A stretch of DNA of 64,000 nt from Patescibacteria group bacterium (GTDB lineage Bacteria; Patescibacteriota; Minisyncoccia; Phycocordibacterales; EsbW-18): contig JBBTUJ010000005.1 of NCBI GenBank assembly GCA_038063815.1, forward strand, positions 4,875 to 68,874. Reading direction: 5' to 3'. The notes below the pieces were generated by a model, which ran no database searches, had not been told where the DNA came from, and saw only the letters and a list, made by a program, of their open reading frames with translations. The position numbers and the translations under genes were made by a program. Below are positions 1,766-63,808 of this stretch, one piece after another. How positions within the stretch are numbered: position 1 is the stretch's first letter; every line of letters starts with the position of its first letter.

Positions 1766-3277
1766 GTGAACAGCGTGTGCCTTATCATTCCACCGTCGGT
1801 GTTCCTCACCGATGAGCGAGTGTTCATGACACTCGGCATCCTCAAGGTCGCCGCGGTGCTTGAGGCCCGCGGTGTTCCAGTTGAGGTCCTCGACCTGTCC
1901 GGCATAAACAACTTCGAAGAGGCCGCCAGAGACCATGCAGCCGCAACAACTGCGACTGTCTTTGGTCTAACGGCAACGACGCCACAACTGCCGGCAACGA
2001 TGGTCATAACCAAAGCCATCCGGTCTGTGCGTAAAGACGCGCGAATCATGCTCGGCGGGCCACACATCACACTGACGAACGCCGCCTACAAACGTGAACA
2101 GACGCACGGAATTCTCGGAGGACGGGCCGTGCCGGCAATGCGACAACTCGTCGAGTCATTCGACGTGCTTGTTGCAGGTGACGGAGAAGATGCCGTCTTC
2201 CTCGCACTGGCAGAAGATGCGCCGCAACTCATCGACGCCGATGATCCTGCGTCACCGCTTTTCCTCACCAATGAGCGCCTCACATCACTTCCGTTCCCCG
2301 CACGTCACCTCGTTGACGTCGGGAGTTACCACTACGCGATCGAGGGCGTTCCAGCCCTTTCCATGATCGCGCAGTTGGGATGTCCATTCGCGTGCGGTTT
2401 CTGTGGCGGAAGGGAATCCGCCATGCTTCGCCGCATTCGAATGCGGACTTCAGAGAACATCGTCGAAGAGATGGTGCACCTCTACACAACGTACGGGTGC
2501 AATGCGTTCATGATGTACGACGATGAACTCAACGTGAACAGAGGGATGCTTGACCTCATGCACCAGATCAGTGAGGCACAGGAGCGCCTCGGTGCGTCCT
2601 GGAAGCTGCGTGGGTTCATCAAGTCCCAACTCTTCACCGACGAGCAGGCATCGGCAATGCACCGAGCCGGATTCCGGTGGATTTTGACCGGGTTCGAGTC
2701 GGGCTCTCCGCGAATCCTGGAGAACATCAACAAGCGGTCAACGCGCGACGAAAACACTCGTTGCGTTGAGATTGCGCGCCGACACAATCTCAAGGTGAAG
2801 GCGCTGATGTCAATCGGACATCCCGGCGAAACGCCGGAAACGGTCGCGGACACAGAGCAATGGCTTGTCGAAGTGGCACCAGACGATTTCGATGTCAGCA
2901 TCATCACGTGTTATCCCGGGACACCCTACTACGATCACGCAGTACGTCATGCGACGCTTCCCGGAGTTTGGACCTACACGTACGAGAAGAATGGTGATCA
3001 ACTTCACCAAATCGAGGTCGACTACGCCACGGTCGCTGACTACTACAAAGGCGACCCCGACGGAGGATACACCGCGTACGTCTTCACTGACGCCCTGTCG
3101 GCAAACGAGCTCGTCGCCGCACGCAATGCCATCGAGCGAAATGTTCGCGCTCGTTTTGGCATCCCGTTCAGTCCGAGCGCTCCCGCGATCAGGTACGAGC
3201 ACTCGATGGGGCAGTTTCCCCCATTCGTTCTGCAGCATCCGCTTCCTGGCGGAACACGGAAGGACAGTTCATCCTGA
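1766..3277 (+). CDS. B12-binding domain radical SAM protein (class B radical SAM, putative C-methyltransferase)
   Basis: 503 aa with an N-terminal Rossmann-like B12-binding region and a CPFACGFC (CX3CX2C) radical SAM cluster motif. GTG start preceded by AAGGAGA 6 nt upstream. The gene is about 60% GC versus roughly 47% in its neighbours. Confidence 0.8.
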   Translation: MNSVCLIIPPSVFLTDERVFMTLGILKVAAVLEARGVPVEVLDLSGINNFEEAARDHAAATTATVFGLTATTPQLPATMVITKAIRSVRKDARIMLGGPHITLTNAAYKREQTHGILGGRAVPAMRQLVESFDVLVAGDGEDAVFLALAEDAPQLIDADDPASPLFLTNERLTSLPFPARHLVDVGSYHYAIEGVPALSMIAQLGCPFACGFCGGRESAMLRRIRMRTSENIVEEMVHLYTTYGCNAFMMYDDELNVNRGMLDLMHQISEAQERLGASWKLRGFIKSQLFTDEQASAMHRAGFRWILTGFESGSPRILENINKRSTRDENTRCVEIARRHNLKVKALMSIGHPGETPETVADTEQWLVEVAPDDFDVSIITCYPGTPYYDHAVRHATLPGVWTYTYEKNGDQLHQIEVDYATVADYYKGDPDGGYTAYVFTDALSANELVAARNAIERNVRARFGIPFSPSAPAIRYEHSMGQFPPFVLQHPLPGGTRKDSSS

Positions 3278-3362: not shown

Positions 3363-4697
3363 TCAGAGAATGTCGTGTACGCTAAATCCTCCTTGCGCCC
3401 TGATACGCGACACGTAGCCAGTGATTGCGAGAATGAGGAGGAGTGGAGTGATGGGTACCAAAAAACCATTCGCAAGCGATATCGAATCGAAACTTGAGAG
3501 TGTTGCTGTTGAGATGATCGCAACGAAGATGTATACCGTCAGAAGGAATACAAGGAGAGAGAACCCGCGAATCCGTAGCCGGATACATGTCACAAGCGCT
3601 CCAACCAAAACCGCAAGGTGTAGTATGGTGAGCAGAATCTTAACAATAAAAATATTTCGTTCTTTTGGTGAGAAATCTGCAATCCCCTGCTGTCCTCTTA
3701 GAATCTCAACACCACGTTCTTTGTACGAGAATGTCGCGCCACTATCGAGCGTGTGAAGCCCGACAGGAAATGAGAACACCCTCACAAAACCTTCCCGGAA
3801 CATCGGCTCACCGATAGCAAAAAGCGAGCGCGTTGTCTTCCGTATGCTCTCGGGCCTAAGATAGTTCTGCTCACCTTTTGCGATAACAGGCGCAACTGAA
3901 AAATCTTCGTACAGGAATATATTCCTGTATGTCCACGGCAGGATAACGAGAGCGACAGCGGAGCACATGATCGCAACAATCACCACACGTTTTCCTATTC
4001 TCTCCCGCTTTTCTTTTTCACGAACACCATCGACGAGAGCCCACAGGGCGAACACAATAGGCAAGAAAAGGGCGATAACATCAGTAAGCGCGCCGAGACC
4101 GAGAAGGATGCCGCAGACGAGTGCTCGCCAGACACTTTCTTCTTTGAGTGCCCGGATAAAAAAGAAGACCGCGGCCGTAAATACAACGGCATACAAGAGA
4201 GCCGAACTTCCGTGCCGTATCTGAAAGAGGAACGATGGCCACACCGCTGCAAGAAGCGCCACAATCCAAGGGATCCTACCACTTGCCACTTCTTTTGCGA
4301 TCGCATAGATAAGAAGTACGAACACGATGTGGAGCAGTATCTGCGAGATTGCGAGCGCTGTTCCGCTTGACCCGATCGTTAGGTAGATGAACGCGAGGTA
4401 CAAGGGCCAACCCGGAGCGTTCCGACCGAACTCGTGCAGAACAAAATCTCCATCAAGGATATGGTGTGCTGCGGCATCGTAGAGCGGAAAATCTTGATTC
4501 AATCGCAGATCATCTACCCGAGGAACCATGACGCACGTCGCAACAACGCACGCGAGAAGAAGAGCGAGGAGAAGCGCCCGATGATCTCTATACCAATGAT
4601 TCGTACGGTCCATACAAATATGAGCGTGACAGATGTATATGATACACTCGACCGATATATGCAGCCAGACATATCTCGCATCGTCGATGCCCATCAC
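3363..4697 (-). CDS. polytopic membrane glycosyltransferase, GT-C fold (PMT/ArnT-like, GT39/GT83-type), putative
   Basis: 444 aa, multiple hydrophobic helices, N-terminal DDARY motif resembling the loop-1 DE motif of PMT/ArnT enzymes. Start uncertain: the GTG/ATG at 4697 would overlap the divergent gene, and MDRTNHW at 4613 is an alternative. Confidence 0.4.
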   Translation of the reverse strand: MMGIDDARYVWLHISVECIIYICHAHICMDRTNHWYRDHRALLLALLLACVVATCVMVPRVDDLRLNQDFPLYDAAAHHILDGDFVLHEFGRNAPGWPLYLAFIYLTIGSSGTALAISQILLHIVFVLLIYAIAKEVASGRIPWIVALLAAVWPSFLFQIRHGSSALLYAVVFTAAVFFFIRALKEESVWRALVCGILLGLGALTDVIALFLPIVFALWALVDGVREKEKRERIGKRVVIVAIMCSAVALVILPWTYRNIFLYEDFSVAPVIAKGEQNYLRPESIRKTTRSLFAIGEPMFREGFVRVFSFPVGLHTLDSGATFSYKERGVEILRGQQGIADFSPKERNIFIVKILLTILHLAVLVGALVTCIRLRIRGFSLLVFLLTVYIFVAIISTATLSSFDSISLANGFLVPITPLLLILAITGYVSRIRAQGGFSVHDIL

Positions 4698-5246
4698 GGA
4701 TCGTCCTCAGGATTCAGTCGTCACTATCTGACGCTCTATTCGATTATCCTTGGTATAGAAGCGAAGAGTGTGCTTGAGGTTGGTGCCGGATTCTCGACGC
4801 AGACGATACTTGCCGCGCTCAAAGAGACCGGAGGGAAGCTCATGACATTCGATATGCGTGACCTCAAGGGCACCGGCAATCCGGAGAGTCTTCGAACAGA
4901 GTTCGCAAATGCATGGACATACGTGCAGGGAGATACTCGGAATACATTGCACACGATCGAAAAGATGACATTTGACGTGATCCTCCATGACGGATCGCAT
5001 GAGTGGCGTGTCGTTCTGAAAGACCTTCGAAAAATACTCCCGCACATAAAACAGAATGGGCTTCTTCTCGTCCACGACACCGAACACCCGGCATTCCGTC
5101 TCAAATTCGCAACACGGCTCGCGCTCATCGGGTATCGACACGAAATAGTCACGCTCCCCTATGGCTACGGCCTCACGATTGTCCGTATCCTCGGCAACAA
5201 ACGAAACGGCTCAGTGAGAACGACCTGGGAAAAGAACAGAAAATAG
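4581..5246 (+). CDS. class I SAM-dependent methyltransferase (O-methyltransferase-like)
   Basis: VLEVGAGFSTQ motif I and DVILHDGSH. The ORF track starts at 4434, but that extension overlaps the divergent membrane glycosyltransferase gene, so an internal start (4581 or 4620) is more likely. Confidence 0.55.
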   Translation: MISIPMIRTVHTNMSVTDVYDTLDRYMQPDISRIVDAHHGSSSGFSRHYLTLYSIILGIEAKSVLEVGAGFSTQTILAALKETGGKLMTFDMRDLKGTGNPESLRTEFANAWTYVQGDTRNTLHTIEKMTFDVILHDGSHEWRVVLKDLRKILPHIKQNGLLLVHDTEHPAFRLKFATRLALIGYRHEIVTLPYGYGLTIVRILGNKRNGSVRTTWEKNRK

Positions 5247-6089
5247 AAGCGCTGCATACGAGCGAGGTGAAAGCGGCGCGTGCTTCCACACTTCGCACGC
5301 ATACATGCGTGCTTTTGCTTTCATGCCAGCACACGCACACGCGATCGATGTTCCATACACAATCTGTACGTAGCGTGCCTTACATTCTTTTTTGAGAATG
5401 TGACCAAAATCGACAAGAAACGCATCGAGGTGTGGGGCACGATTCGCCGAGCGTGCATAATCGAATTTTTTCCGTCCCTGCGTGAGTGAGCCCGGCGTAT
5501 CAAGAAACACATCCCCCAGCGGTTCCTGAGAATGGAACCACTGACCCTGCGCAGCAAGACGTGCAGCAACGATGAAATCGACATTGCGTGATACATACGG
5601 CGCTTTTAGATACGCATCCTTTCGCGCAAGACGAACCTTCTCGTTATTCCCGAGATATTTGCAGAGAGTTTGTTGAAGTGAGACGTACCCGCTCGTGCGT
5701 ACAGGAAACGGGACCTCCTTGTCCCCGCGCATCATCCGCGCGGGCACTGAAACAACAATGGCATCGGGGTGCGCTTCCACGAGCAAGCGAAGAAAAGCGA
5801 GCGCGTTGGGGTAGAGAGTGTCATCACTGTCCCACACAAGGACGTACTCCCCTTTTGCTTCTTTGATTCCTTGATTGCGCGCAAATGATGCGCCCTTATT
5901 CTCCGGCAATTGAACAGTCCGCAGACGTGAGTCCGTGAATCCGGCAAGGATATCCTTCGTCCCATCCGTCGAACCATCATCAACGACAATGATTTCAAAA
6001 CCCATATCTGTTTGTGAAAGAACGCTCGCAAGACATGCCTGAAGCGTGTGAGATCTATTGTATGTTGCTATGACAATGCTGAGCATCAT
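5211..6089 (-). CDS. glycosyltransferase family 2
   Basis: MLSIVIATYNRSHTLQ...IIVVDDGSTDGT...VWDSDD are typical GT2 motifs. Confidence 0.8.
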   Translation of the reverse strand: MMLSIVIATYNRSHTLQACLASVLSQTDMGFEIIVVDDGSTDGTKDILAGFTDSRLRTVQLPENKGASFARNQGIKEAKGEYVLVWDSDDTLYPNALAFLRLLVEAHPDAIVVSVPARMMRGDKEVPFPVRTSGYVSLQQTLCKYLGNNEKVRLARKDAYLKAPYVSRNVDFIVAARLAAQGQWFHSQEPLGDVFLDTPGSLTQGRKKFDYARSANRAPHLDAFLVDFGHILKKECKARYVQIVYGTSIACACAGMKAKARMYACEVWKHAPLSPRSYAALLFSVLFPGRSH

Positions 6090-15178: not shown

Positions 15179-15667
15179 TTAGGCGATGCACATCCGGAGG
15201 AGAGGTGCGAACTTCTGGTTGCCGCTCAACGCAGCGATCTCACGGGCCTCGTCGAGCGTCATGAGACCAGCATTGACTGCCGCGACAAGAACAACCGCTT
15301 CATCGGCGTCCTCGGGGAGACCCGAGAATGCCATCACGAGGTTCTTAGCCGCACGAATCCCCCCGCCCCACTCGTTGCGTTCCGGATTGCGGCTCTCCGC
15401 GCTTGACCGAAGATTGTCCTGGATGATGCGCAAAACCTTCTCCACACAGTAGTCGACCGAGGGAGAGGTTGGTGGAACGTATCCTAGGCGCATCTTGAAG
15501 GGCATCCAGAGTTCCCCCCTCTTGTCTTTGCACCAGTTGAGAAAGAACCACCCCGCAATCTTCCTTCCCCTCTCGGAATCCTCGGTGAGACCATTCGCAA
15601 TGGCCACATCCAGGATCCGAGGGAGTGATCCGAGGATCTGACCCACGTGATCGAGCGTTGCGCGCAC
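15179..15667 (-). CDS. hypothetical protein (GC-rich islet inside the glycosyltransferase cluster)
   Basis: 162 aa ORF with a GTG start. The region is about 58-60% GC against roughly 45% neighbours. A GC hairpin plus U-tract lies downstream at about 15092-15131. No family recognised. Confidence 0.35.
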   Translation of the reverse strand: MRATLDHVGQILGSLPRILDVAIANGLTEDSERGRKIAGWFFLNWCKDKRGELWMPFKMRLGYVPPTSPSVDYCVEKVLRIIQDNLRSSAESRNPERNEWGGGIRAAKNLVMAFSGLPEDADEAVVLVAAVNAGLMTLDEAREIAALSGNQKFAPLLRMCIA

Positions 15668-20484: not shown

Positions 20485-20769
20485 TCAGTCGTCCGCACGG
20501 GATGTAACCGTCGCGCTAGGATTCCACACCCTGACGCTCGTCCATCCTCCCTCTTGGACAACGACAGCGGCCGACCATCCGGCCGTCCGGACGAACCCGG
20601 TGATCTCGTAGACCTGACCGACCGTTAGGTACGGACCGAGTTCGACTCGGGCAAATCCGTTGGTCTGAAGCTGGACGCTGATCGCGCCCAGCACCCGCGA
20701 CTTCGCCTCTTCATTCCAGGGAAACCACTTGCCTCCCTGGGTCTTCTCAACTTGTCCTAAGGTGACCAT
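20485..20769 (-). CDS. hypothetical small protein (GC-rich cassette)
   Basis: 94 aa, about 60% GC. SD GGGAGGAA lies 8 nt upstream of the ATG. An intrinsic terminator hairpin plus U-tract sits at 20421-20461. Confidence 0.45.
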   Translation of the reverse strand: MVTLGQVEKTQGGKWFPWNEEAKSRVLGAISVQLQTNGFARVELGPYLTVGQVYEITGFVRTAGWSAAVVVQEGGWTSVRVWNPSATVTSRADD

Positions 20770-22525: not shown

Positions 22526-22784
22526 GTGCGGACAGAAATAGAAGTGAAGGTCACTCTCCGCTCGGTCGTAACCGAGCAGATGCGCCTGCGACACGGACTC
22601 GACAGGTCCACGTCTTCAGATGCATTGCGGGAAGCGTGGCGACTCGCCACGCTTCCGCCGGAGCAGTGGCCGGATGCGCTCCCATTTCCAACAACAAACC
22701 GTCACCAGCCGAACCCCAACCCGTAGCGAAAAACTCCCACAAAGGGATTACGACCTACCTGTGTCCATTCCAGGAGGTCGTTTT

Positions 22785-26593: not shown

Positions 26594-26818
26594 CTACAAC
26601 TGGTGTAGGCGGCGGTGCTGCTCGTTCCCCCAGCGCAGAATCGCGCTGAGGAGAACGACGGCCAGGATGTAGATGAGCGCCGTGGCGCACATCACGAGCG
26701 CCTGACCAGCGCTCATCGTCGGCGTCGCCCCATGGAGCGGCGCCGACAAGTTTCCCAGAGCGTGGATGAACACCGACACTCCGGGGACTGAAAATCTGAT
26801 GACAAAACTGCTGATCAT
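26594..26818 (-). CDS. small hydrophobic protein (75 aa) with its own promoter, SD and terminators
   Basis: MISSFVIRFSVPGVSVFIHALGNLSAPLHGATPTMSAGQALVMCATALIYILAVVLLSAILRWGNEQHRRLHQL. Preceded by TTGACT-N16-TATAAT, then AGGAGGTG 6 nt before the ATG. About 62% GC. The ORF track's 115 aa version extends upstream through the promoter. Confidence 0.5.
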   Translation of the reverse strand: MISSFVIRFSVPGVSVFIHALGNLSAPLHGATPTMSAGQALVMCATALIYILAVVLLSAILRWGNEQHRRLHQL

Positions 26819-26837
26819 TGGCCACCTCCTGAGAAGC

Positions 26838-26865
26838 ATTATACCAGCACGTTTGTAAAAGTCAA
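26838..26865 (-). promoter_or_regulatory. sigma70-like promoter TTGACT-N16-TATAAT driving the small ORF
   Basis: Minus-strand sense reads TTGACTTTTACAAACGTGCTGGTATAATGC, followed by SD AGGAGGTG (26823-26830) and the ATG at 26818. Confidence 0.55.
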
Positions 26866-26881
26866 TACCCTGTGGGTAAGC

Positions 26882-26910: not shown

Positions 26911-27257
26911 CGCTTTGCCATCCTCGCGGATGACCATACATGTGTCTTTTCTTTTGTTCCGTTCATACCGGTCTTTCCCGGCTTGTCCGATTGCTTTAAG
27001 GATATTCAATCATAATCCATCACGTACTCAATTGAGGTACATGATATCGACCGCCTTGATCAAGTATTCAAAAACTGAACACTCGACGATTTGTCATTGG
27101 ACAAAATCCACGAGCAGCTTCCGCTACCCGTGCCTTGTTACGCCTTAACCCTAGTCACCGAACTTGCCTTAGAACATGAGAACCATGTGCTTCGGGCATT
27201 CCCGGCTCCTTTGACTTGGCGGGCGGTGAGTACAAGGCTCGAGAACGTATTCACCGT

Positions 27258-27289
<32 letters not shown>

Positions 27290-27452
27290 ACTTCATGAGG
27301 TCGAGTTGCAGACCTCAATCCGAACTGAGGATGGCTTTCTAAGGATTGGCTCGGGATTACTCCGTCGCGACCTGTTGTACCACCCATTGTATCACGTGTG
27401 TAGCCCGAGGCATCAGAGGGACATGCTGACTTGGCGTCATCCCCGCCTTCCT

Positions 27453-27594
27453 CCCAGCACGAAGCGTACGATGTACGCTTCAAGTTAAAAGTTTGTAAAG
27501 TTATAAAGTTTATAAAGTATTTTTTGTATTCACTTTACGAACTTGATGAACTTTTTACTTTCTACTTGAAGCGCTTCACGCGCTTTGTGCTGGG
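27453..27594. repeat. 16S V7 (h40-loop) insertion containing a copy of the AT-rich dispersed repeat, flanked by GC palindromes
   Basis: CCCAGCAC...GTGCTGGG closes the stem. Inside lie GAAGCGTACGATGTACGCTTC and GAAGCGCTTC hairpins plus the AAGTTATAAAGTTTATAAAGT...GATGAACTTTTTACTTT repeat. Confidence 0.6.
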
Positions 27595-28511
27595 CGGTCT
27601 CGTCTGACACTTATAACAGACGATAGGGGTTGCGTTCGTTACCCCACTTAAGGGAACAGCTCAAGCCACGAACTGACGACAGCCATGCATCACCTGTCCA
27701 GCCGCCCGAAGGCTCGTAAAGTTTCCTCTACGATTCGTCTGGATGTCTAGCCTCGGTGAGGTTCTTCGTTTAGCATCGAATTAAACCACATGATCCACCG
27801 CTTGTGCGAGCCCCCGTCTATTCCTTTGAGTTTTAACCTTGCGGTCGTACTACCCAGGCGGATCACTTAACGCGTTAGCTTCGCCTCTCAGAGGGTCGAT
27901 ACTCCGAAAAGCTAGTGATCATCGTTTAGGGCCAGGACTACTGGGGTATCTAATCCCATTCGCTCCCCTGGCTTTCGTGTTTCAGCGTCAGATATATGCT
28001 AGTGTACTGCCTTCGCTTTTGGCGTTCCCCACGATATCAACGGATTTCACCCCTACACCGTGAGTTCCGTACACCCCTCATACTCTCGTAGTTGTACCGT
28101 TTCCCATGCGGATTTCTGGTTAGGCCAGAAGATTTGACACAGGACTAATACAACCGCCTACACACCCTTTACGCCCAATAATTCCGGATAACGCTCGGGG
28201 CTCTCGTATTACCGCTGCTGCTGGCACGAGATTAGCAGCCCCTTATTCATCGGGTACCGTCAAAATTTCTTCCCCGATAAAAGATCTTTACGTCCCGAAG
28301 GACTTCATCAATCACGCGGCGTCGCTCCGTCACACTTTCGTGCATTGCGGAAGGTTCTTGACTGCAGCCACCCGTAGGTGTCTGGACAGTGTCTCAGTTC
28401 CAGTGGTGGGGGTCAGGCTCTCACCTCCCCTACGCGTCATAGCCTTGGTAAGCCATTACCTTACCAACTAGCTGATACGAGGCAGGCCGTTCTAGAAGCG
28501 ATAAATCTTTA

Positions 28512-28646
28512 CCCGCACACTAACTTTGGCATTGTCTTCAGTACGCCGAGATCATTGTCACATTATCTGTGATAACTATTCGGGAATAACGATAATAAAC
28601 CTTCCACACAACTGCCTTCGGCGTAATGCCAAAGTTAGTGTGCGGG
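28512..28646. repeat. 16S V2 insertion forming a 22 bp perfect stem (CCCGCACACTAACTTTGGCATT / AATGCCAAAGTTAGTGTGCGGG), with a partial third copy at 28664-28690
   Basis: A perfect 22 bp inverted repeat encloses 91 nt, with an inner ACGCCGA/TCGGCGT extension. It is absent from E. coli-type V2. Confidence 0.65.
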
Positions 28647-29042
28647 TTTACTCCGATTTGAAGACCATTACAAAGTTAGTGAGCGGGACCATCAGGTATT
28701 AGCCCATCTTTCGATGAGTTATTCCTGACTTCTAGGTACGTTCCCACCCGTTACTACCCCGTTTGCCGGTTGCCCTTGCGGGCCCCCTTGACTTGCATGC
28801 CTTAACCACGCCGCCAGCGTTCATCCTGAGCTAGGATCAAACTCTACATAAGAATCACAAATTGCTTTGTGATTTTTCTGAACGGAACAAAAGAAACAAC
28901 ACATGTATATCGTTCTTTGTTCTTTTTTTCCAGCACGTAGCTCATGCGTGCCGGACTTAGATACTTTACTTGTTTAGGAATAGACGAGTACTCCCAACAC
29001 TTATTCGAGTGCTGGAAAATCTTGTACTCTCTACTTATTTTA

Positions 29043-29493: not shown

Positions 29494-31776
29494 ATGCGCT
29501 ACAATACCCCCATGCAGCTCAACGACCCGCTTATAAAAATACTTCGCCTTACCGAGGCACAGAAGAAGGCGCTCAAAAAACTGCATCTCACGAGTGTGTC
29601 AGATGTGCTCTATCACTTCCCCGCTCGATACGTCTCATCAACGGGCGATGGTGTTATTCAAACAACTGCTCCGGGTGACATGGCTTCTGTTGTGGGAGTT
29701 ATTTCAAAAACAAAAGCACGCAAGGCATGGAAAAGCCGTATTCCTATGACCGAAGCAACACTCAAAGATGCGTCAGGAAGCTTGCATCTTTTGTGGCTCC
29801 ACCAGCCATACATCTCAAAAATGTTTCCCGAAGGATCAGCCGTTGTTGTCACAGGAAAAATAAAAGAGAAGGACGGTAAGCGCTCGATGATTAATCCAGA
29901 AATTACACGCGTAAAAACAGGGGGGTTTGGAGGTCCGACCTCCAGGAATTTGGAGGTCGGACCTCCAAATAGAAATAATCTTTTTAATACAACCCCGAAC
30001 TCGGATATACCACTTCTTCCTGTGTACCCCGAGAGTCGCGGTGTCACGTCACGATGGTTCTTCTACACCATTCAAAAGATACTTGCAGACGATGTTGTGA
30101 ACACCGCACACGATCCAATTCCAAAAGACATCTTAAAAAAATATAATCTTCCGGCGCTCGGTACGGCGCTTGTGTGGATGCATGCCCCAAAAAACGAGAC
30201 CGACGCACGTGCCGCACGCAAACGGTTTGCGTTTCAAGAAATCTTTTTTATTCAACTCAAAAAGCAACAAGAGCGACACTTCACCGACTCGCTCCCCACA
30301 TGGGATATCCGACCGTCGCAAGAAAGCATCAACGAGTTTCTTGCAAAGTTTCCCTTTACACCGACAAGTGCCCAATCAAAAGCGCTCACCGATATCTTTA
30401 ATGATTTTGCCGGTACTCGCGCAATGTCACGACTTCTTGAGGGTGATGTTGGTTCGGGTAAAACATTCGTTGCCGCTGCTACCAGTTTCGCTGTGGTTAC
30501 GACGCGTCCGCCAAAGATGGTATCGACAGGTCCTGCGCTTCCCAAAAAATCCGACTTACAAAAACAAGCTGGTCGTGTCGAGGGTAAGCAAGATTTCGGC
30601 AACCTTCAGGTGGCGCTCATGGCCCCTACTGAAATATTGGCAACGCAGCATTTTGAATCGTTTATCGAGCTCTATCGCGGATTGCCGATCAATGTGGCAC
30701 TCATCACTTCATCGGGATGCAAAAAGTTCCCGTCCAAAGTCAATCCCAATTCATGGACCGACATCTCACGCGCACAACTTTTGAAATGGGTGGCAAATGG
30801 TGAGATACCTATCCTCATTGGCACACACGCACTCATTCAAAAAACGGTGGAGTTTAAACATCTGGCGTATGTGATCATTGATGAACAGCACAGGTTTGGA
30901 ACAAAACAGCGCATGACCTTGGCGCGCAAAGACGAAAAGATTCCTCACTTGCTTTCGATGACTGCAACACCGATCCCTCGCACACTCGCGCTCACTATAT
31001 ATGGCGACCTCGATCTCACCCTGCTCGATGTGATGCCTCCCGGGCGCAAACCGATTGTTACAAAAATCGCCACACCACGCGAGCGAAAGGCGGTGTATGA
31101 ACACATCCGTACCGAAGTACAGAGTGGCAGACAAGCGTACATTATTTGCCCACGTATTGACGCGCCCGATGAAAACGACGAAATGGCACTTCAGGCAAAA
31201 TCGGTTGAGGAAGAAACTAAGCACCTTTCGCGCGACGTGTTCCCGGAATTCCGTATTGCATCGCTCCATGGCAAGATGCTTTCGAGCAAAAAAGAAAGCG
31301 TGATGGCCGACTTTGTGTCGGGGGCAATCAACATTCTCGTAGCAACGTCTGTGGTTGAGGTGGGTGTCAATGTTCCCAATGCAACTATCATTATTATCGA
31401 GGGTGCCGAGCGCTTTGGCCTTTCGCAACTTCACCAAATCCGCGGGCGCGTCTTGCGAAGCACGCACCAAGCGCACTGCTATCTCTTTACTGAATCGAAA
31501 TCGCAATCAACGCTCGACCGTCTCAAAGTGCTTGCCGAGGCCGCCAACGGGTTCGAGCTCGCCGAGCACGACCTCGCACTCCGCGGCGCGGGTGGTCTTG
31601 TCGGCCACAAACAGTGGGGTGTTTCCGATGTCGGCATGGAAGCGCTTCAAAATATCAAAATGGTTGAAGCAGCGCGAAACGAGGCGAAGGCGCTCGTTTC
31701 GCGCGACCCGGAACTCTCAGGATTTCCTCTTTTACAATCCGCCCTCACCGAGCGTGGCGAGGTGCATTTTGAGTAA
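29494..31776 (+). CDS. recG: ATP-dependent DNA helicase RecG
   Basis: Walker A LLEGDVGSGKT, DEQH box VIIDEQHRFG, MTATPIPRTL and QLHQIRGRVLR. 760 aa. Confidence 0.9.
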   Translation: MRYNTPMQLNDPLIKILRLTEAQKKALKKLHLTSVSDVLYHFPARYVSSTGDGVIQTTAPGDMASVVGVISKTKARKAWKSRIPMTEATLKDASGSLHLLWLHQPYISKMFPEGSAVVVTGKIKEKDGKRSMINPEITRVKTGGFGGPTSRNLEVGPPNRNNLFNTTPNSDIPLLPVYPESRGVTSRWFFYTIQKILADDVVNTAHDPIPKDILKKYNLPALGTALVWMHAPKNETDARAARKRFAFQEIFFIQLKKQQERHFTDSLPTWDIRPSQESINEFLAKFPFTPTSAQSKALTDIFNDFAGTRAMSRLLEGDVGSGKTFVAAATSFAVVTTRPPKMVSTGPALPKKSDLQKQAGRVEGKQDFGNLQVALMAPTEILATQHFESFIELYRGLPINVALITSSGCKKFPSKVNPNSWTDISRAQLLKWVANGEIPILIGTHALIQKTVEFKHLAYVIIDEQHRFGTKQRMTLARKDEKIPHLLSMTATPIPRTLALTIYGDLDLTLLDVMPPGRKPIVTKIATPRERKAVYEHIRTEVQSGRQAYIICPRIDAPDENDEMALQAKSVEEETKHLSRDVFPEFRIASLHGKMLSSKKESVMADFVSGAINILVATSVVEVGVNVPNATIIIIEGAERFGLSQLHQIRGRVLRSTHQAHCYLFTESKSQSTLDRLKVLAEAANGFELAEHDLALRGAGGLVGHKQWGVSDVGMEALQNIKMVEAARNEAKALVSRDPELSGFPLLQSALTERGEVHFE
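29926..29970. repeat. 45 bp structured palindrome in-frame inside recG
   Basis: TTTGGAGGTCCGACCTCC-aggaattt-GGAGGTCGGACCTCCAAA. Two 18 bp arms, each itself a near-palindrome, encode GGFGGPTSRNLEVGPPN. Confidence 0.6.
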
Positions 31777-57383: not shown

Positions 57384-57646
57384 GATGCTTTTTTAACGCC
57401 AGGAATCATTCCTTTGTTTGCGAGCTCTCGAAAACAGATACGGCAGAGACCGAAGTCCCGCATGAATCCACGAGAGCGACCGCATTTAAAACAACGGTTT
57501 TTTGAACGCACCGGCGATGCGTTCTTCTTGAGCGCTTGAAGTCCCTCATGGTCATGTGCAACCTTGAGCGCCGTGCGCTTTTCGCGGTTCTTTGCTATGA
57601 GCGTGTGCCGTTTTCGGTCTCGCGCTTTGAGGGCTGTGCGTGCCAT
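57377..57646 (-). CDS. rpsN: 30S ribosomal protein S14 (type Z, zinc-binding)
   Basis: 89 aa with [25 protein letters not shown]. Confidence 0.9.
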
Positions 57647-57812
57647 GAATAGTTGGTTGTAGGTCGTTGGTTGTCTGTTTTGCGACGACAGTCACAATAA
57701 AACACCTGCCTTTCTTGATACCCATGGATCACGCTGAGCGGGACCGGCTGGTATCTAAAGGCGGATAAGTCCCCCGCAAAGCGGGGCAAGCTCTCGAAAC
57801 GAAAGCCCAGCT

Positions 57813-57841
57813 ATCCTAGCAAAAAACGACCCCTCTGTCAA
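57813..57841 (-). promoter_or_regulatory. promoter-like TTGACA-N17-TAGGAT inside the rplE-rpsN spacer
   Basis: Minus-strand sense reads TTGACAGAGGGGTCGTTTTTTGCTAGGAT, directly after the L5 terminator. Confidence 0.4.
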
Positions 57842-57844
57842 AAA

Positions 57845-57880
57845 CGAAAGTCCGCTCCCTTGCGGAGCGGACTTTCACGT
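57845..57880 (-). terminator. rho-independent terminator immediately after rplE
   Basis: Minus RNA reads AAAGUCCGCUCC-GCAA-GGGAGCGGACUUU, a 12 bp perfect stem, followed by CGUUUUUG. Confidence 0.6.
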
Positions 57881-60890: not shown

Positions 60891-61277
60891 TTAGGCGTTA
60901 GCGGCTGGTTTGGTCTTGGATTTTTTTGGTTTTTGAATTTTGGATTTTGGATTTTCTTGTGCGAGAACAAGGATGATATTGCTTGCGTGCTTGTCAATCC
61001 GTGTTGCCCGTCCTTGTGCTCGAGGAATCGAGCGACGCATCGTGAGACCCTTATCAACCCGGATTTCTTTGATGATGAGCGACTCAACACCGATACCATC
61101 TTTGCTTTTTGCATTTGCGATTGCTGACTCCACCAATTTTTTGAGCGCGCCCGTTGCACGCTTCGGTGTTGTATCCAAAAGAAGAAGCGCTCGGGTAACC
61201 GACTTTCCTTTGATGAGATCGGCGACAAGACGCACCTTTCTCGGCGATTGTCTGTAGTTTTTAAGGTACGCGCGCAT
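60891..61277 (-). CDS. rplV: 50S ribosomal protein L22 with Lys/Pro-rich C-terminal tail
   Basis: MRAYLKNYRQSPRKVRLVADLIKGKSVTRALLLL... The tail is encoded by a CA-rich AAATCCAAAATCCAAA repeat. Confidence 0.9.
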   Translation of the reverse strand: MRAYLKNYRQSPRKVRLVADLIKGKSVTRALLLLDTTPKRATGALKKLVESAIANAKSKDGIGVESLIIKEIRVDKGLTMRRSIPRAQGRATRIDKHASNIILVLAQENPKSKIQKPKKSKTKPAANA

Positions 61278-61280
61278 GGT

Positions 61281-61386
61281 AGTTATAAAGTTCGAAAGTT
61301 ATAAAGTTCATCAAGTTCGTATAGGAATTTGAGATTGAAGAGATTTTGACTTTATAACTTTATAAACCTGATAAACTTTTTACTTT
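61281..61386. repeat. AT-rich dispersed palindromic repeat copy, rpsS-rplV spacer
   Basis: AGTTATAAAGTTCGAAAGTTATAAAGTTCATCAAGTT...GACTTTATAACTTTATAAACCTGATAAACTTTTTACTTTTT. Confidence 0.65.
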
Positions 61387-61736
61387 TTGGCTGCCGGTGC
61401 TGCTGCAGTATCCGCTGCGGCCTTCGCCCCCTTCGCTGCTGCGATCTCTGCGTCCTTCTTCGCTTGGTCGAGTGCCTTTTGCATCTGTCCTCCGTGTCGG
61501 CGGAATGTCTTTGTTGGTGAAAATTCACCAAGACGGTGTCCAACCATTTCTTCGGTTACAAACACATCGAGAAAACTCTTCCCGTTGTGTACACCAAATG
61601 TATATCCGACCATTTCAGGCGCAATGATACTCGCGCGAGCCCATGTTTTGATGGTCGCACCACCGGCTTTTCCGGCAGCAACCTTCTTCATGAGTTTCGC
61701 GTTCAAATATGGTCCTTTCTTGAGGGATCGGGTCAT
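61380..61736 (-). CDS. rpsS: 30S ribosomal protein S19 with Ala/Lys-rich C-terminal tail
   Basis: [19 protein letters not shown]...[18 protein letters not shown]. The start is taken at M17 of the track ORF. The stop codon lies inside an AT-rich repeat copy. Confidence 0.85.
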
Positions 61737-61895
61737 GGATGTTGAACAAAAAGAGCCCCAGTGGCTCGCAAAGTATCGTAGCAAAAAATAAGGAAATGTA
61801 AACCCCTACCACAACATCCTGACTAAACACTCGGTGTCCGGTCAAACTGACCGGACACCGAGTGTTGCACGTACCGATGTAATGTCTGTAAAACC

Positions 61896-61924
61896 TTGTG
61901 GAGGTGTGCAAAACGAGGTATAGT
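61896..61924 (+). promoter_or_regulatory. plus-strand promoter-like TTGTGG-N17-TATAGT inside the rplB-rpsS spacer
   Basis: TTGTGGAGGTGTGCAAAACGAGGTATAGT. It would drive the antisense 66 aa minigene. Confidence 0.4.
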
Positions 61925-62006
61925 TTTTGTTGGGCACAGTTCTTTGTTTTTTGTAGTTTGGAATCACCTTTTCCGCATGGAGCGGAAGGGTTCGCAGGAG
62001 AAGCAC

Positions 62007-62207
62007 ATGAAGGATGCGGAGCGGAACGAAACCGACCAGCCATGCCTTTGCGAAAAGAGTCACGCCGTCATGCAGCGGCATGGCAAACCGACCGAGGTTC
62101 GAATTCTGAGCCTCAGCCACCGCAGAGGAACTGCCTGCGTCCGACCGCTCAAGGGAGCGTCGGGGACACTGGTCGTCTCAATCGCTGCCCTCGTCGCTCT
62201 CACGTAA
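62007..62207 (+). CDS. hypothetical small protein (66 aa) encoded antisense within the rplB-rpsS spacer
   Basis: MKDAERNETDQPCLCEKSHAVMQRHGKPTEVRILSLSHRRGTACVRPLKGASGTLVVSIAALVALT. SD AGGAGA lies 5 nt upstream. About 60% GC. A promoter sits upstream and an intrinsic terminator at 62241-62270 downstream. Confidence 0.4.
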   Translation: MKDAERNETDQPCLCEKSHAVMQRHGKPTEVRILSLSHRRGTACVRPLKGASGTLVVSIAALVALT

Positions 62208-62240
62208 CACCCCCCCTCGCACTACCCCCCACCCCCCGAA

Positions 62241-62270
62241 GGCGCCGCAAGTAGTACGCGGCGCCTTTTC
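62241..62270 (+). terminator. plus-strand intrinsic terminator (GGCGCCGC-loop-GCGGCGCC-TTTTCTC)
   Basis: 8 bp GC stem, 9 nt loop and a T-tract, 34 nt after the stop of the 66 aa ORF. Confidence 0.5.
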
Positions 62271-62275
62271 TCATT

Positions 62276-62309
62276 CACAAAACCACCCCCGCCTTTCGGC
62301 GGGGGTGGT
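62276..62309 (-). terminator. minus-strand intrinsic terminator directly after rplB
   Basis: Minus RNA reads ACCACCCCCGCC-GAAA-GGCGGGGGUGGU followed by UUUUGUG, 16 nt after the L2 stop. Confidence 0.55.
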
Positions 62310-62325
62310 CTCTTTCAATTTATTT

Positions 62326-63180
62326 TTACTGGTTCCGTTTCTTTCCAACACGTCGCCTCTCTGAAATGAGGTGGTCTGAGTATTTGTTGTGGCGGCGCGT
62401 CTTGTGTCCCTTTCCTGTGTTCTTTCCGTGTCGTGTTCGTGCGCGTCGGTGTCCACGTCCTTGTCGTCCTTCACCACCACCGTGTGGGTGATCAACTGGG
62501 TTCATCGCAGTACCACGCACCTTCGGACGGATTCCCATCCAACGTGAGCGTCCCGCTTTTCCAAGAACCTGCAAACGAAATTCAGGATTTGAGACCTCAC
62601 CAATTGATGCCCATGCGCCTTCAGGAACTCTTCGGATTTCTGTTGACGGCATTTTGAGAAGTGTGTACCCCCCGTCGTGCGCAACGACTTCCGCATAGTT
62701 TCCTGCCGAGCGGCTCAATTTTGCACCGCCATTTGATTTGAGTTCGATGTTGTAGACGAATGTACCAACAACAATCTTTGCGAGGGGCAATCGGTTGCCC
62801 GGAGTTACGGGAGCACTCTCGGATGTAAGAACTGTTGCGCCAACTTTGAGCGATTGCGGAGCGAGAATGTAGCGGCGCTCGCCATCTTTATACAAAAGAA
62901 GTGCAATGAATCCCGTGCGGTTCGGATCATATTCGATCGCTTCAACGCGCGCAGGAATATCTTTTTTGTTATACATGAAATCAACATCACGGAATCGGCG
63001 CTTGTGCCCTCCACCTGTTGAGCGCGTCGTCAAACGTCCGCGTGAGTTACGACCGACCGCAGGAGAAAATCCTTTGGTGAGTGCCTTGTGCGGCTTTCCA
63101 GACGTCGAGGTCAAAACACCGCGATACGTCACGGTAGACATTCCTCTTCGGCCTGCTGATGTTGGTTTGTGGTGCTTCAT
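62326..63180 (-). CDS. rplB: 50S ribosomal protein L2
   Basis: 284 aa, ...GGGHKRRFRDVDF...HPHGGGEGR... Confidence 0.9.
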   Translation of the reverse strand: MKHHKPTSAGRRGMSTVTYRGVLTSTSGKPHKALTKGFSPAVGRNSRGRLTTRSTGGGHKRRFRDVDFMYNKKDIPARVEAIEYDPNRTGFIALLLYKDGERRYILAPQSLKVGATVLTSESAPVTPGNRLPLAKIVVGTFVYNIELKSNGGAKLSRSAGNYAEVVAHDGGYTLLKMPSTEIRRVPEGAWASIGEVSNPEFRLQVLGKAGRSRWMGIRPKVRGTAMNPVDHPHGGGEGRQGRGHRRARTRHGKNTGKGHKTRRHNKYSDHLISERRRVGKKRNQ

Positions 63181-63243
63181 GACAGTTTGTAAGTTTTTTA
63201 GTTTATTGGTTTTGAACTAAAGCGTAGCGTAACTAATAAACTA

Positions 63244-63708: not shown

Positions 63709-63715
63709 ATCAGTG

Positions 63716-63808
63716 AGTTATAAAGTTGAAGGTTATAAGGTTTATCAAGTTAGAAATAGATTGCGTATGAACTTTATGAACTTGACGGACCTGATGAACT
63801 TTTTACTT
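63716..63808. repeat. AT-rich dispersed palindromic repeat copy, rplD-rplW spacer
   Basis: GAGTTATAAAGTTGAAGGTTATAAGGTTTATCAAGTT...ATGAACTTTATGAACTTGACGGACCTGATGAACTTTTTACTTTTT. Confidence 0.65.

Follow-up and report, generated by a model that had tools for sequence, protein, structure and literature searches.

The S10-spc cluster of ribosomal protein genes is among the most conserved gene orders in bacteria, and its concatenated ribosomal proteins are the standard marker set for phylogeny of the candidate phyla radiation (CPR). In the E. coli S10 leader, with its L4 attenuator, and in other ribosomal protein leaders held in Rfam, a hairpin and a U-run lie between the promoter and the first gene and are conserved across related species. 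Small additional transcription units are known from other settings. Lambdoid phages reportedly carry extra units, the 'morons' of Hendrix, Juhala and co-workers (2000), each with an autonomous promoter, a single small open reading frame (ORF) and a terminator, lying between genes that most other genomes have side by side, deviant in base composition and often transcribed against the flanking genes. Type I toxin-antitoxin loci such as txpA/RatA and bsrG/SR4 combine a small ORF encoding a hydrophobic C-terminal stretch with its own promoter and terminator, and are convergent with a neighbouring transcript whose terminator abuts their own. In this study, we describe the spacer between two S10 cluster genes, rplB and rpsS, in a 64-kb stretch of DNA (the window) from an uncultured Parcubacteria (Kaiserbacteria-like CPR) population of Hainich groundwater, together with a small plus-strand transcription unit, here called the minigene, that lies within this spacer.

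We think it rather probable that two things act jointly at this locus: a break of the S10 cluster common to a whole subclade, and an inherited, fast-evolving orphan small gene of moron-like layout that occupies the resulting slot in the window population and its sister lineage. The S10 cluster of this Parcubacteria subclade would not be one operon, being cut between rplB and rpsS. A strong intrinsic terminator of roughly symmetric build (T1) would end the transcription of rplB, a sigma-70-type promoter of their own would restart it for rpsS and the genes beyond, and the DNA in between would be vacant space, taken up in different lineages by unrelated genes. The minigene would already have been present in the common ancestor with the nearest lineage, its signals having been kept and its coding body having diverged beyond recognition. 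Our literature search found no description of an operon break at rplB|rpsS; of the themes treated here, only the loss of the anti-Shine-Dalgarno sequence has been published.

Methods

Relatives of the window were collected as 80 genome loci and 80 metagenome loci encoding relatives of its uL2 protein, and clade membership was taken from a neighbour-joining tree of L2. Locus L007, the nearest available lineage (77% L2 identity), is sister to the window in this tree, and its spacer was compared with that of the window by block-wise alignment against shuffled controls. Rfam was run on positions 61000-63000 at E up to 10 and on the whole window at gathering thresholds.

A probable break of the S10 cluster between rplB and rpsS

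The S10 cluster of the window is encoded on the minus strand. The features that bound the spacer are as follows.

62326-63180, minus strand: rplB (uL2, 284 aa), last gene of the predicted upstream transcription unit; ORF, with Pfam Ribosomal_L2_N/C on the identical protein
62275-62313, minus strand: T1, predicted intrinsic terminator of rplB; stem GAGACCACCCCCGCC/GGCGGGGGUGGUUUU, loop GAAA, tail UUUUGUG
61775-61802, minus strand: predicted rpsS promoter TTTACA-N16-TGcTACGAT, the only promoter-like site reported by the scan
61745-61767, minus strand: predicted rpsS leader; 5'-terminal hairpin GAGCC-ACUGG-GGCUC, then UUUUUGUU, then AUG without a Shine-Dalgarno (SD) sequence; fold -8.3 kcal/mol
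61380-61736, minus strand: rpsS (uS19, 118 aa), first gene of the predicted downstream transcription unit; ORF, with Pfam Ribosomal_S19

That rplB and rpsS are normally adjacent, as stated in the first-pass annotation of the window, is borne out by the genomes fetched: most non-CPR bacteria have a gap of 2-66 bp and a few loci one of about 100-210 bp, and outgroup CPR lineages have 8-53 bp. In the subclade that contains the window, 22 of 24 members have a gap of at least 170 bp, which extends up to 2267 bp or leaves no rpsS within 2.5-4 kb. A terminator (A-tract, stem, T-tract) directly follows rplB in at least 13 of 22 clade genomes under a strict scan, and in more by eye, and a TTGAC..TAnnnT promoter directly precedes rpsS in 11 of the 16 clade genomes searched with a strict regular expression. 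A short GC-rich hairpin with a T-run stands before rpsS in 15 of 16 clade genomes, compared with 17 of 188 control ORFs (9%) of the same loci; it begins 3-9 nt after the -10 hexamer, and its stems vary (GAGCC, GCTC, AGCTC, CGCC, TGCCG, CCCGC, GCCC) with the structure retained. Because the rplB terminator and the rpsS promoter with its 5' hairpin recur in this way across related genomes, rpsS and the genes downstream of it are very probably transcribed separately from rplB, as had been proposed from the window.

Conservation of the spacer among relatives is limited to the gene-proximal edges, and the interiors are unrelated between species. The cargo includes MazE with MazF (L014), the diacylglycerol kinase DagK (L018), DUF5674 (L009) and orphan ORFs on either strand; the spacer of L015 holds a 1007-aa surface protein followed by an IS200-like Y1 transposase about 3 kb from rplB. 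In L087, a more distant relative, the slot is likewise occupied by a cargo gene on the opposite strand. An integron- or REP-like cassette mechanism for this variable cargo was considered and rejected, as paired imperfect palindromes were not found around the cargo in 11 relatives and no recombinase lies nearby. The relatives thus have long spacers of unrelated content rather than a shared ribosomal leader, and no Rfam family, including the ribosomal protein leaders, reaches its gathering score in the spacer of the window, where the scan returned only generic terminator-hairpin noise. A recent, private insertion is likewise at odds with the comparison, the break being ancestral to the clade and the minigene being common to L007.

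If this reading is correct, a whole Parcubacteria subclade cuts the S10 cluster at rplB|rpsS and the window genome does so also at rpsJ|rplC and rplE|rpsN, each cut being provided with a terminator and a fresh promoter, which would change the view of how ribosomal protein stoichiometry is controlled in these reduced cells. It would also make rplB|rpsS a defined chromosomal position at which lineage-specific genes gather, among them toxin-antitoxin pairs, a lipid kinase and orphan ORFs.

The spacer of the window

The spacer measures 589 bp (61737-62325), since the start of rpsS is the conserved ATG at 61736 and not the TTG at 61784. The insertion of 540 bp (61785-62325) that had been annotated between the two genes is therefore real as to its place, and its size was misjudged through the misplaced rpsS start. 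The uL2 and uS19 proteins occur with identical sequence on contigs of four assemblies (ENA ERZ1292625, the metagenome-assembled genome (MAG) GCA_964355065.1 and two Logan runs). The spacer itself is identical in six contigs from the four assemblies, so that it is not an assembly artefact, and the surrounding 1.9 kb is 100% identical in all of them; by this contig comparison the window population is clonal. In one of the records, L002 (GCA_964355065.1), about 100 extra bases with a 55-bp duplication lie within rpsS at 2918-3019, exactly where contig L004 ends; this is probably a scaffolding artefact, which destroys the rpsS gene call in the deposited MAG record.

T1 has perfect 12-nt arms (62282-62293/62298-62309), extends to 15 bp when G-U pairs are counted, and folds at -32.7 kcal/mol (z-score -8.0). 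It begins 13 nt after the rplB stop codon, and its position is conserved across the clade. Its hairpin and U-tail are those of an intrinsic terminator, in agreement with the minus-strand terminator originally placed at 62276-62309; being roughly symmetric, it may also stop transcripts that arrive from the plus strand. The GC content over 62000-62300 is 0.60-0.65, compared with a mean of 0.49 (sd 0.05) for the window. Neither a tRNA nor a tmRNA was detected in the spacer by ARAGORN, and with blastn the full spacer sequence matched nothing in phage and plasmid collections.

The rpsS promoter and leader

The predicted rpsS promoter agrees with the consensus at 9 of 12 positions and has the spacing and the orthologous position of a sigma-70-type promoter; the block formed by the promoter and the leader is identical to L007 at 48 of 69 positions (z 5.3). 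The rpsS mRNA would start with a short GC-rich stem-loop followed by a U-rich leader without an SD sequence, most likely a 5'-terminal stabiliser followed by an unstructured ribosome loading site. The arrangement recalls the E. coli S10 leader and the other leaders named above, but the element is only about 20 nt long, stands at the very 5' end of the RNA, precedes rpsS and not rpsJ, and matches no Rfam leader family. Stem-loops of the ompA/ermC type are known as 5'-terminal stabilisers, and the rpsS element resembles these more than it does an L4-type attenuator.

The plus-strand minigene and its counterpart in L007

The features of the unit are as follows.

61896-61924, plus strand: putative minigene promoter TTGTGG-N17-TATAGT with a weak -35, read from the sequence
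61966-62009, plus strand: conserved leader block; hairpin CCUUUUCCGC-AUGGA-GCGGAAGG, then AGGAGAAGCAC-AUG; fold -13 kcal/mol
61996-62001, plus strand: AGGAGA, 5 nt before the ATG of the ORF, read from the sequence
62007-62207, plus strand: 66-codon GC-rich orphan ORF, ATG to TAA, MKDAERNETDQPCLCEKSHAVMQRHGKPTEVRILSLSHRRGTACVRPLKGASGTLVVSIAALVALT, from the ORF list
62210-62238, no strand assigned: C-rich tract in the minigene 3' untranslated region, C7..C6.C6 on the plus strand and G6-U-G6-N8-G7 on the minus strand
62238-62277, plus strand: T2, predicted intrinsic terminator of the minigene, convergent with T1; GAAGGCGCCGC-9 nt-GCGGCGCCUUU followed by UCUCAUU

The minigene would be transcribed as a unit of about 340 nt from its predicted start site to its terminator: behind a weak promoter come 75 nt of leader, in which a hairpin is conserved, a conserved purine-rich start region, the GC-rich ORF of 66 codons and T2, the terminator of the unit, which faces T1. 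The L007 spacer is about 524-530 bp long and carries a corresponding unit on the antisense strand, in the order promoter, AUGGA-loop hairpin, GGAGGAGAAGCAUAUG, 61-codon ORF, T2, T1. The leader and start block is identical at 35 of 50 positions (z 5.5), its stem having changed from CCGC/GCGG to CCCC/GGGG with the AUGGA loop kept. The motif of this block, CCGCAUGGAGCGG..GGAGAAGCAYAUG, is confined to the window and L007 lineages among loci L001-L170 and has no other copy within the window; its GGAGAAGCAyAUG portion, including the start codon, is conserved between the two. The T2-T1 block is identical at 55 of 73 positions (z 12.8), T2 being kept in L007 with a compensatory change of G:C to A:T and T1 being homologous to the L007 terminator, whereas the body of the ORF shows no significant similarity (z -0.7). 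Between the start region and T1 the word-match diagonals of the two loci shift by no more than 4 nt, so the length of the unit has been maintained, and since the unit is syntenic and flank-homologous in L007, it predates the split of the two lineages. Judged by this comparison, the minigene signals are under constraint and the coding body is not recognisably conserved. Within the L007 population, comparison of positions 4001-5800 with L167, L168 and L170 placed all 9 single nucleotide polymorphisms in rplB and none in the spacer or rpsS, where an equal rate would have put about 5 in the spacer.

T2 consists of an 11-bp stem at 62238-62268 (10-bp core arms 62239-62248/62258-62267; -21.1 kcal/mol, z -5.0) followed on the plus strand by UUUUCUCAUU. 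It lies about 30 nt after the stop codon of the ORF and, with its hairpin and tail, has the form of an intrinsic terminator, as the plus-strand terminator annotated at 62241-62270 had suggested. The C-rich tract that precedes it is absent in L007; it may have G-quadruplex potential. The minigene had been described as a gene of foreign composition expressed antisense inside the S10 operon. Its deviant composition is plain from the ORF (GC 0.62; 0.64, 0.49 and 0.69 at codon positions one, two and three, hereafter GC1, GC2 and GC3) when set beside the GC3 of 0.46 and 0.49 in the flanking rplB and rpsS, but the unit is antisense to no gene, and sits between two transcription units.

The predicted product of 66 aa includes the peptides NETDQPCLCEK, ILSLSHR and GASGTLVVSIAALVALT. 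In L007 the ORF has GC1, GC2 and GC3 of 0.56, 0.48 and 0.89 within a locus of 52% GC, a strong frame-specific signal of which the window ORF shows a weaker form. AlphaFold2, run on the single L007 sequence, gave a five-stranded small barrel with a predicted local distance difference test score (pLDDT) of 78, with weak matches to Sm/Hfq/SH3-like folds (E about 0.02). The ATG is conserved between the window and L007, and the ORFs are of similar length (66 and 61 codons). Given that the unit is ancestral, that its signals are conserved and that its coding body has diverged, it is most likely a real, fast-evolving and possibly decaying orphan gene for a small protein.

Searches for relatives of this protein, which the first-pass annotation had called for, yielded no credible one. 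Neither Pfam nor PHROGs gave a match to the 66-aa ORF, tblastn-type scans of viral contigs gave no credible relative, and the L007 ORF matched only its own population in the protein database. An exhaustive HMMER search of 1.84 billion representative proteins returned five hits, of which four were long repeat proteins, with three DUF11 surface proteins matching residues 27-63 repeatedly. A home-made profile of 16 DUF11 repeat units, built from the hits themselves, scored 19.3 bits over 37 residues, a score reached by 0 of 3000 shuffles; Pfam DUF11 (PF01345, a repeat of about 114 residues) did not hit the ORF even at E up to 10. As the match was picked from 1.84 billion proteins, as repeats inflate the E-value of the library and as Pfam DUF11 is silent, the similarity is a lead and not a sign of membership in the family.

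The unit has the architecture and the deviant composition of a phage moron and thus the same layout, but is not a member of that class: it lies in a cellular ribosomal protein cluster with no phage context and no similarity to phage collections, and it is shared vertically with a sister lineage, whereas morons are sporadic. It likewise recalls the type I toxin-antitoxin loci in its small ORF, promoter, terminator and convergent neighbour, but the convergent partner is the rplB mRNA and not a dedicated antitoxin RNA, no promoter for a second RNA is evident, the hydrophobic stretch comprises only about 14 residues, and the L007 counterpart is predicted to be a soluble beta-barrel and not hydrophobic.

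Start of the minigene in a host without an anti-Shine-Dalgarno sequence

Loss of the anti-SD sequence has been reported in a Parcubacteria subgroup (PMC9297842). The window includes the following gene.

27096-28852, minus strand: 16S rRNA gene, from the Rfam scan of the window

At 1757 nt, compared with 1533 nt for the model, this gene carries insertions. Its 3' end (27096-27110) reads ...GUGGAUUUUGUCC / ...GCUGCUCGUGGAUUUUGUCC / GGAUUUUGUCC and does not contain CCUCC. Only 6 of 58 native genes of the window have any GGAG-like 4-mer upstream, and the ribosomal protein genes of L007 also lack SD sequences. The AGGAGA motif and the 66 aa ORF of about 60% GC, as first annotated, are both present, with 5 nt between the motif and the ATG; the SD argument fails, as the pairing partner CCUCC is absent from the 16S rRNA and native genes do without SD. 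Because the host 16S rRNA has no anti-SD, AGGAGA cannot be a classical ribosome-binding site, and the conserved GGAGAAGCAyAUG may either act at the RNA level or aid initiation independently of an anti-SD. A 'new anti-SD' derived from the changed 16S tail was considered and discarded, its complement not being enriched upstream of genes (15 of 58, with 13.9 expected). Enrichment of SD-like motifs in genes of high GC3 was not significant in the less biased of our tests. The minigene, otherwise an ordinary-looking orphan unit, is a small test case both for the persistence of orphan genes beside essential genes and for translation start without an anti-SD.

Alternative explanations of the spacer

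Several observations weigh against a protein-coding minigene. Its putative promoter, TTGTGG-N17-TATAGT, is present as annotated but weak, matching only 8 of 12 consensus positions; it falls below the threshold of the promoter scan, which did not report it, and is not conserved in sequence with L007, where TTGCAT...TATAAT stands in the analogous place and the promoter region is not significantly similar. The AlphaFold2 model of the window ORF is of low confidence (pLDDT 57.8) except for one beta-hairpin at residues 12-38. Its codon score falls between those of real and spurious ORFs, 6% of spurious ORFs scoring as high and 5% of real-gene segments as low. The products of the window and L007 ORFs show no similarity in BLASTP, shuffling, three-frame, DNA-level or frame-shift-aware comparisons; 13 residues that matched non-collinearly in a different frame (p = 0.003, uncorrected for the three frames compared) were put down to chance. 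A word-indexed search of 5.8 billion proteins contained no homologue of the window ORF, itself included. A high GC3 in a freely evolving gene is hard to square with long residence in a genome of 49-52% GC, and the conserved purine-rich motif may be an RNA-level element rather than a ribosome-binding site. Gene callers, moreover, preferred a 79-aa minus-strand ORF (62081-61842), which we set aside since it lies downstream of T1 without a promoter, crosses the minigene promoter into the palindrome described below, and has no counterpart in L007. The plus-strand unit might then be a gene of about 340 nt for a non-coding RNA, of which the 5' hairpin, the purine stretch and the terminator are functional and the ORF is incidental. 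Conserved ends around a variable middle are typical of small RNAs, and such a pattern is seen here, with leader, start and terminators conserved but not the body of the ORF; protein homologues are lacking, the supposed SD is no ribosome-binding site in a host without an anti-SD, and at 62% GC the chance of 66 open codons is about 0.14 by our own estimate. An untranslated L007 ORF, however, could hardly account for a GC3 of 0.89 beside a GC2 of 0.48 and for the confident small-barrel model, the start codon is conserved and the ORFs are of similar length, the transcript predicted for the window has no more structure than shuffled sequence does (z -0.97), and Rfam gave no match. The predicted L007 transcript folds with z -4.2. 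We regard an RNA gene as unlikely, though with a substantial probability left to it because the purine-rich motif is conserved while the host lacks an anti-SD.

Recent acquisition of the GC-rich segment as foreign DNA without function for the host, either as a cassette of moron type whose source (phage, plasmid or high-GC donor) is unsampled or as what is left of a DUF11-type surface gene, would account for its GC of 0.62-0.65 against 0.49 for the window, for the presence of an SD-like motif although the host makes no use of SD, for the score of residues 27-63 on the DUF11 repeat profile and for other GC-rich orphan units of the same genome that have their own promoter, SD-like motif and terminator. 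The composition is deviant, but no donor can be named, and the synteny with L007, which places the unit before the split, argues against a recent arrival. Nor is there similarity to phage, plasmid or viral collections, an integrase, a target-site duplication, repeated ends or a second copy in the window; the DUF11 match is a single 37-residue stretch found among 1.8 billion proteins, with a repeat-inflated E-value and a self-built profile; a 419-aa sibling of the unit is equally an orphan, lacking a donor-like homologue; and the link between SD-like motifs and high GC3 was, as stated, not significant. Foreign origin is accordingly improbable in our judgement, and less so only than a further proposal, that the whole spacer is a cis-regulatory leader of an rpsS sub-operon, that is, a minus-strand autoregulatory RNA of a ribosomal protein, with palindrome and G-rich tract as parts of its structure. 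Folded as the minus strand, the spacer is indeed very stable (z -8.35), and the clade-conserved hairpin and U-run directly before rpsS look attenuator-like. The stability, however, is owed to three local hairpins, and the plus strand is just as stable (z -7.0), T1 lies upstream, the remainder of the spacer is unconserved in relatives, no Rfam leader matches, and the rpsS leader is only about 30 nt long because the conserved promoter lies downstream of the palindrome. This last proposal we consider very improbable.

A long palindrome between two predicted divergent promoters

61826-61866, no strand assigned: perfect palindrome with 19-nt arms (61826-61844/61848-61866) and a 3-nt spacer, AACACTCGGTGTCCGGTCA-AAC-TGACCGGACACCGAGTGTT

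The palindrome is 41 bp long and folds at -37 kcal/mol on either strand. It had been annotated as a perfect hairpin of 17 bp stem and 37 bp total length (61828-61864) in the rpsS leader; it is perfect, with arms of 19 nt, and it lies outside the leader, because the rpsS promoter (61802-61775) is placed between it and rpsS. Its position is thus upstream of that promoter and between two predicted divergent promoters, whose transcription starts would fall about 78 and about 85 bp downstream of its centre. No copy was found in L007, elsewhere in the window, or in viral contigs scanned for the exact pattern. By chance, 0.15 occurrences of the 17-mer half-site with up to 3 mismatches are expected per window, and none of 100 shuffles contained it twice.

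The element is specific to the lineage, and its role is most likely that of a symmetric protein-binding site, a cruciform site or a back-up block for rplB read-through. As a cruciform it could respond to negative supercoiling between the divergent promoters; the block role is weighed against by its minus-strand tail, UUUAGU, a poor U-tract. In being a long palindrome in an intergenic hot spot whose cargo differs between genomes, it resembles REP/RAYT systems, the PATEs derived from IS200/IS605 and integron attC sites, and the Y1 transposase gene near rplB in L015 adds to the likeness. It differs from them in being single-copy in 64 kb, in having no GTAG head, no paired imperfect ends around the cargo and no integrase or transposase nearby, and in its perfect arms, those of attC being imperfect.

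Unrelated palindromes were also seen. L087 has a perfect palindrome of 32 bp at 4076-4107 (TTATCCAACGATTCCATGGAATCGTTGGATAA), about 30 bp upstream of its rpsS promoter. The window genome contains a different palindromic repeat family, GGAGGTCsGACCTCC. Two copies of it form a perfect palindrome with 19-nt arms at 29926-29969, inside the 760-aa ORF 29494-31776 (plus strand) of a helicase that is probably RecG-like, where they are in frame and encode ...GGFGGPTSRNLEVGPPN...; a similar repeat at about 4640-4720 of L001 flanks an N-gap in the rplC-rplD spacer. The family looks like one able to insert in frame, comparable to the Rickettsia palindromic elements.

Other GC-rich orphan units of the genome

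Further GC-rich orphan ORFs occur in this genome. On the minus strand at 26594-26870, between the 16S rRNA and tRNA-Ile genes, there are a terminator, the promoter-like TTGACT-N17-TATAAT, AGGAGG-6 nt-ATG and a hydrophobic orphan ORF of 74 aa (GC 0.62, GC3 0.81; no Pfam or PHROGs match). Just past the window end, between rpsJ and rplC, the 419-aa gene mentioned above (L001, 2389-3648) lies on the opposite strand (GC 0.62, GC3 0.71) with an N-terminal hydrophobic stretch and AAGGAG-5 nt-ATG upstream; the database of 5.8 billion proteins held no homologue of it other than itself. GC-rich islands (GC 0.58-0.63, GC3 0.66-0.71, in a genome of 49% GC) are found at 15179-15667 (minus), 20485-20769 (minus), 22526-22726 (plus) and 1766-3277 (plus); the last of these is a B12-binding radical SAM gene, the other three orphan ORFs of 162, 94 and 66 aa. 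Terminator-like hairpins occur after the ORFs of 162 and 94 aa, and a promoter-like site stands before that of 162 aa. The GC-rich orphan ORFs as a group have GC3 of 0.67-0.81, compared with 0.46-0.49 in rplB and rpsS, and most of those looked at have promoter- or terminator-like signals of their own and several an SD-like motif. Like the spacer, they showed no phage, plasmid or viral similarity.

A wider interpretation, to which we assign little probability, is that the DNA from the rplB terminator to the rpsS promoter is a conserved 'expression slot', in which the flanks are inherited and a GC-rich orphan body is replaced or diversified faster, and that such units form a genome-wide class marked by SD-like start regions. 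The inherited flanks may be the 5' hairpin with its purine-rich start region and the facing terminators, and the loci in which the units sit may be those with the strongest transcription (twice the S10 cluster, once the 16S-tRNA spacer). If true, this would imply a separate and unknown way of expressing or using these genes in a bacterium that lacks an anti-SD.

Further features of the S10 cluster

Besides rplB|rpsS, the cluster of this genome is interrupted at no fewer than two other places. At the rplE|rpsN break (57640-57880, minus strand) a 13-bp terminator follows rplE, then come TTGACA-N17-TAGGAT and a leader of about 170 nt with a CCCCGC/GCGGGG hairpin before rpsN, for which no Rfam family reaches the gathering score. 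The rpsJ|rplC break has a terminator after rpsJ, with the 419-aa GC-rich orphan on the opposite strand. The intercistronic spacers rpsS/rplV (61278-61379), rplW/rplB (63181-63243) and rplD/rplW (63709-63800) contain long AT-rich imperfect hairpins, with repeats such as GTTATAAAGTT, and these may be processing or stabilising structures.

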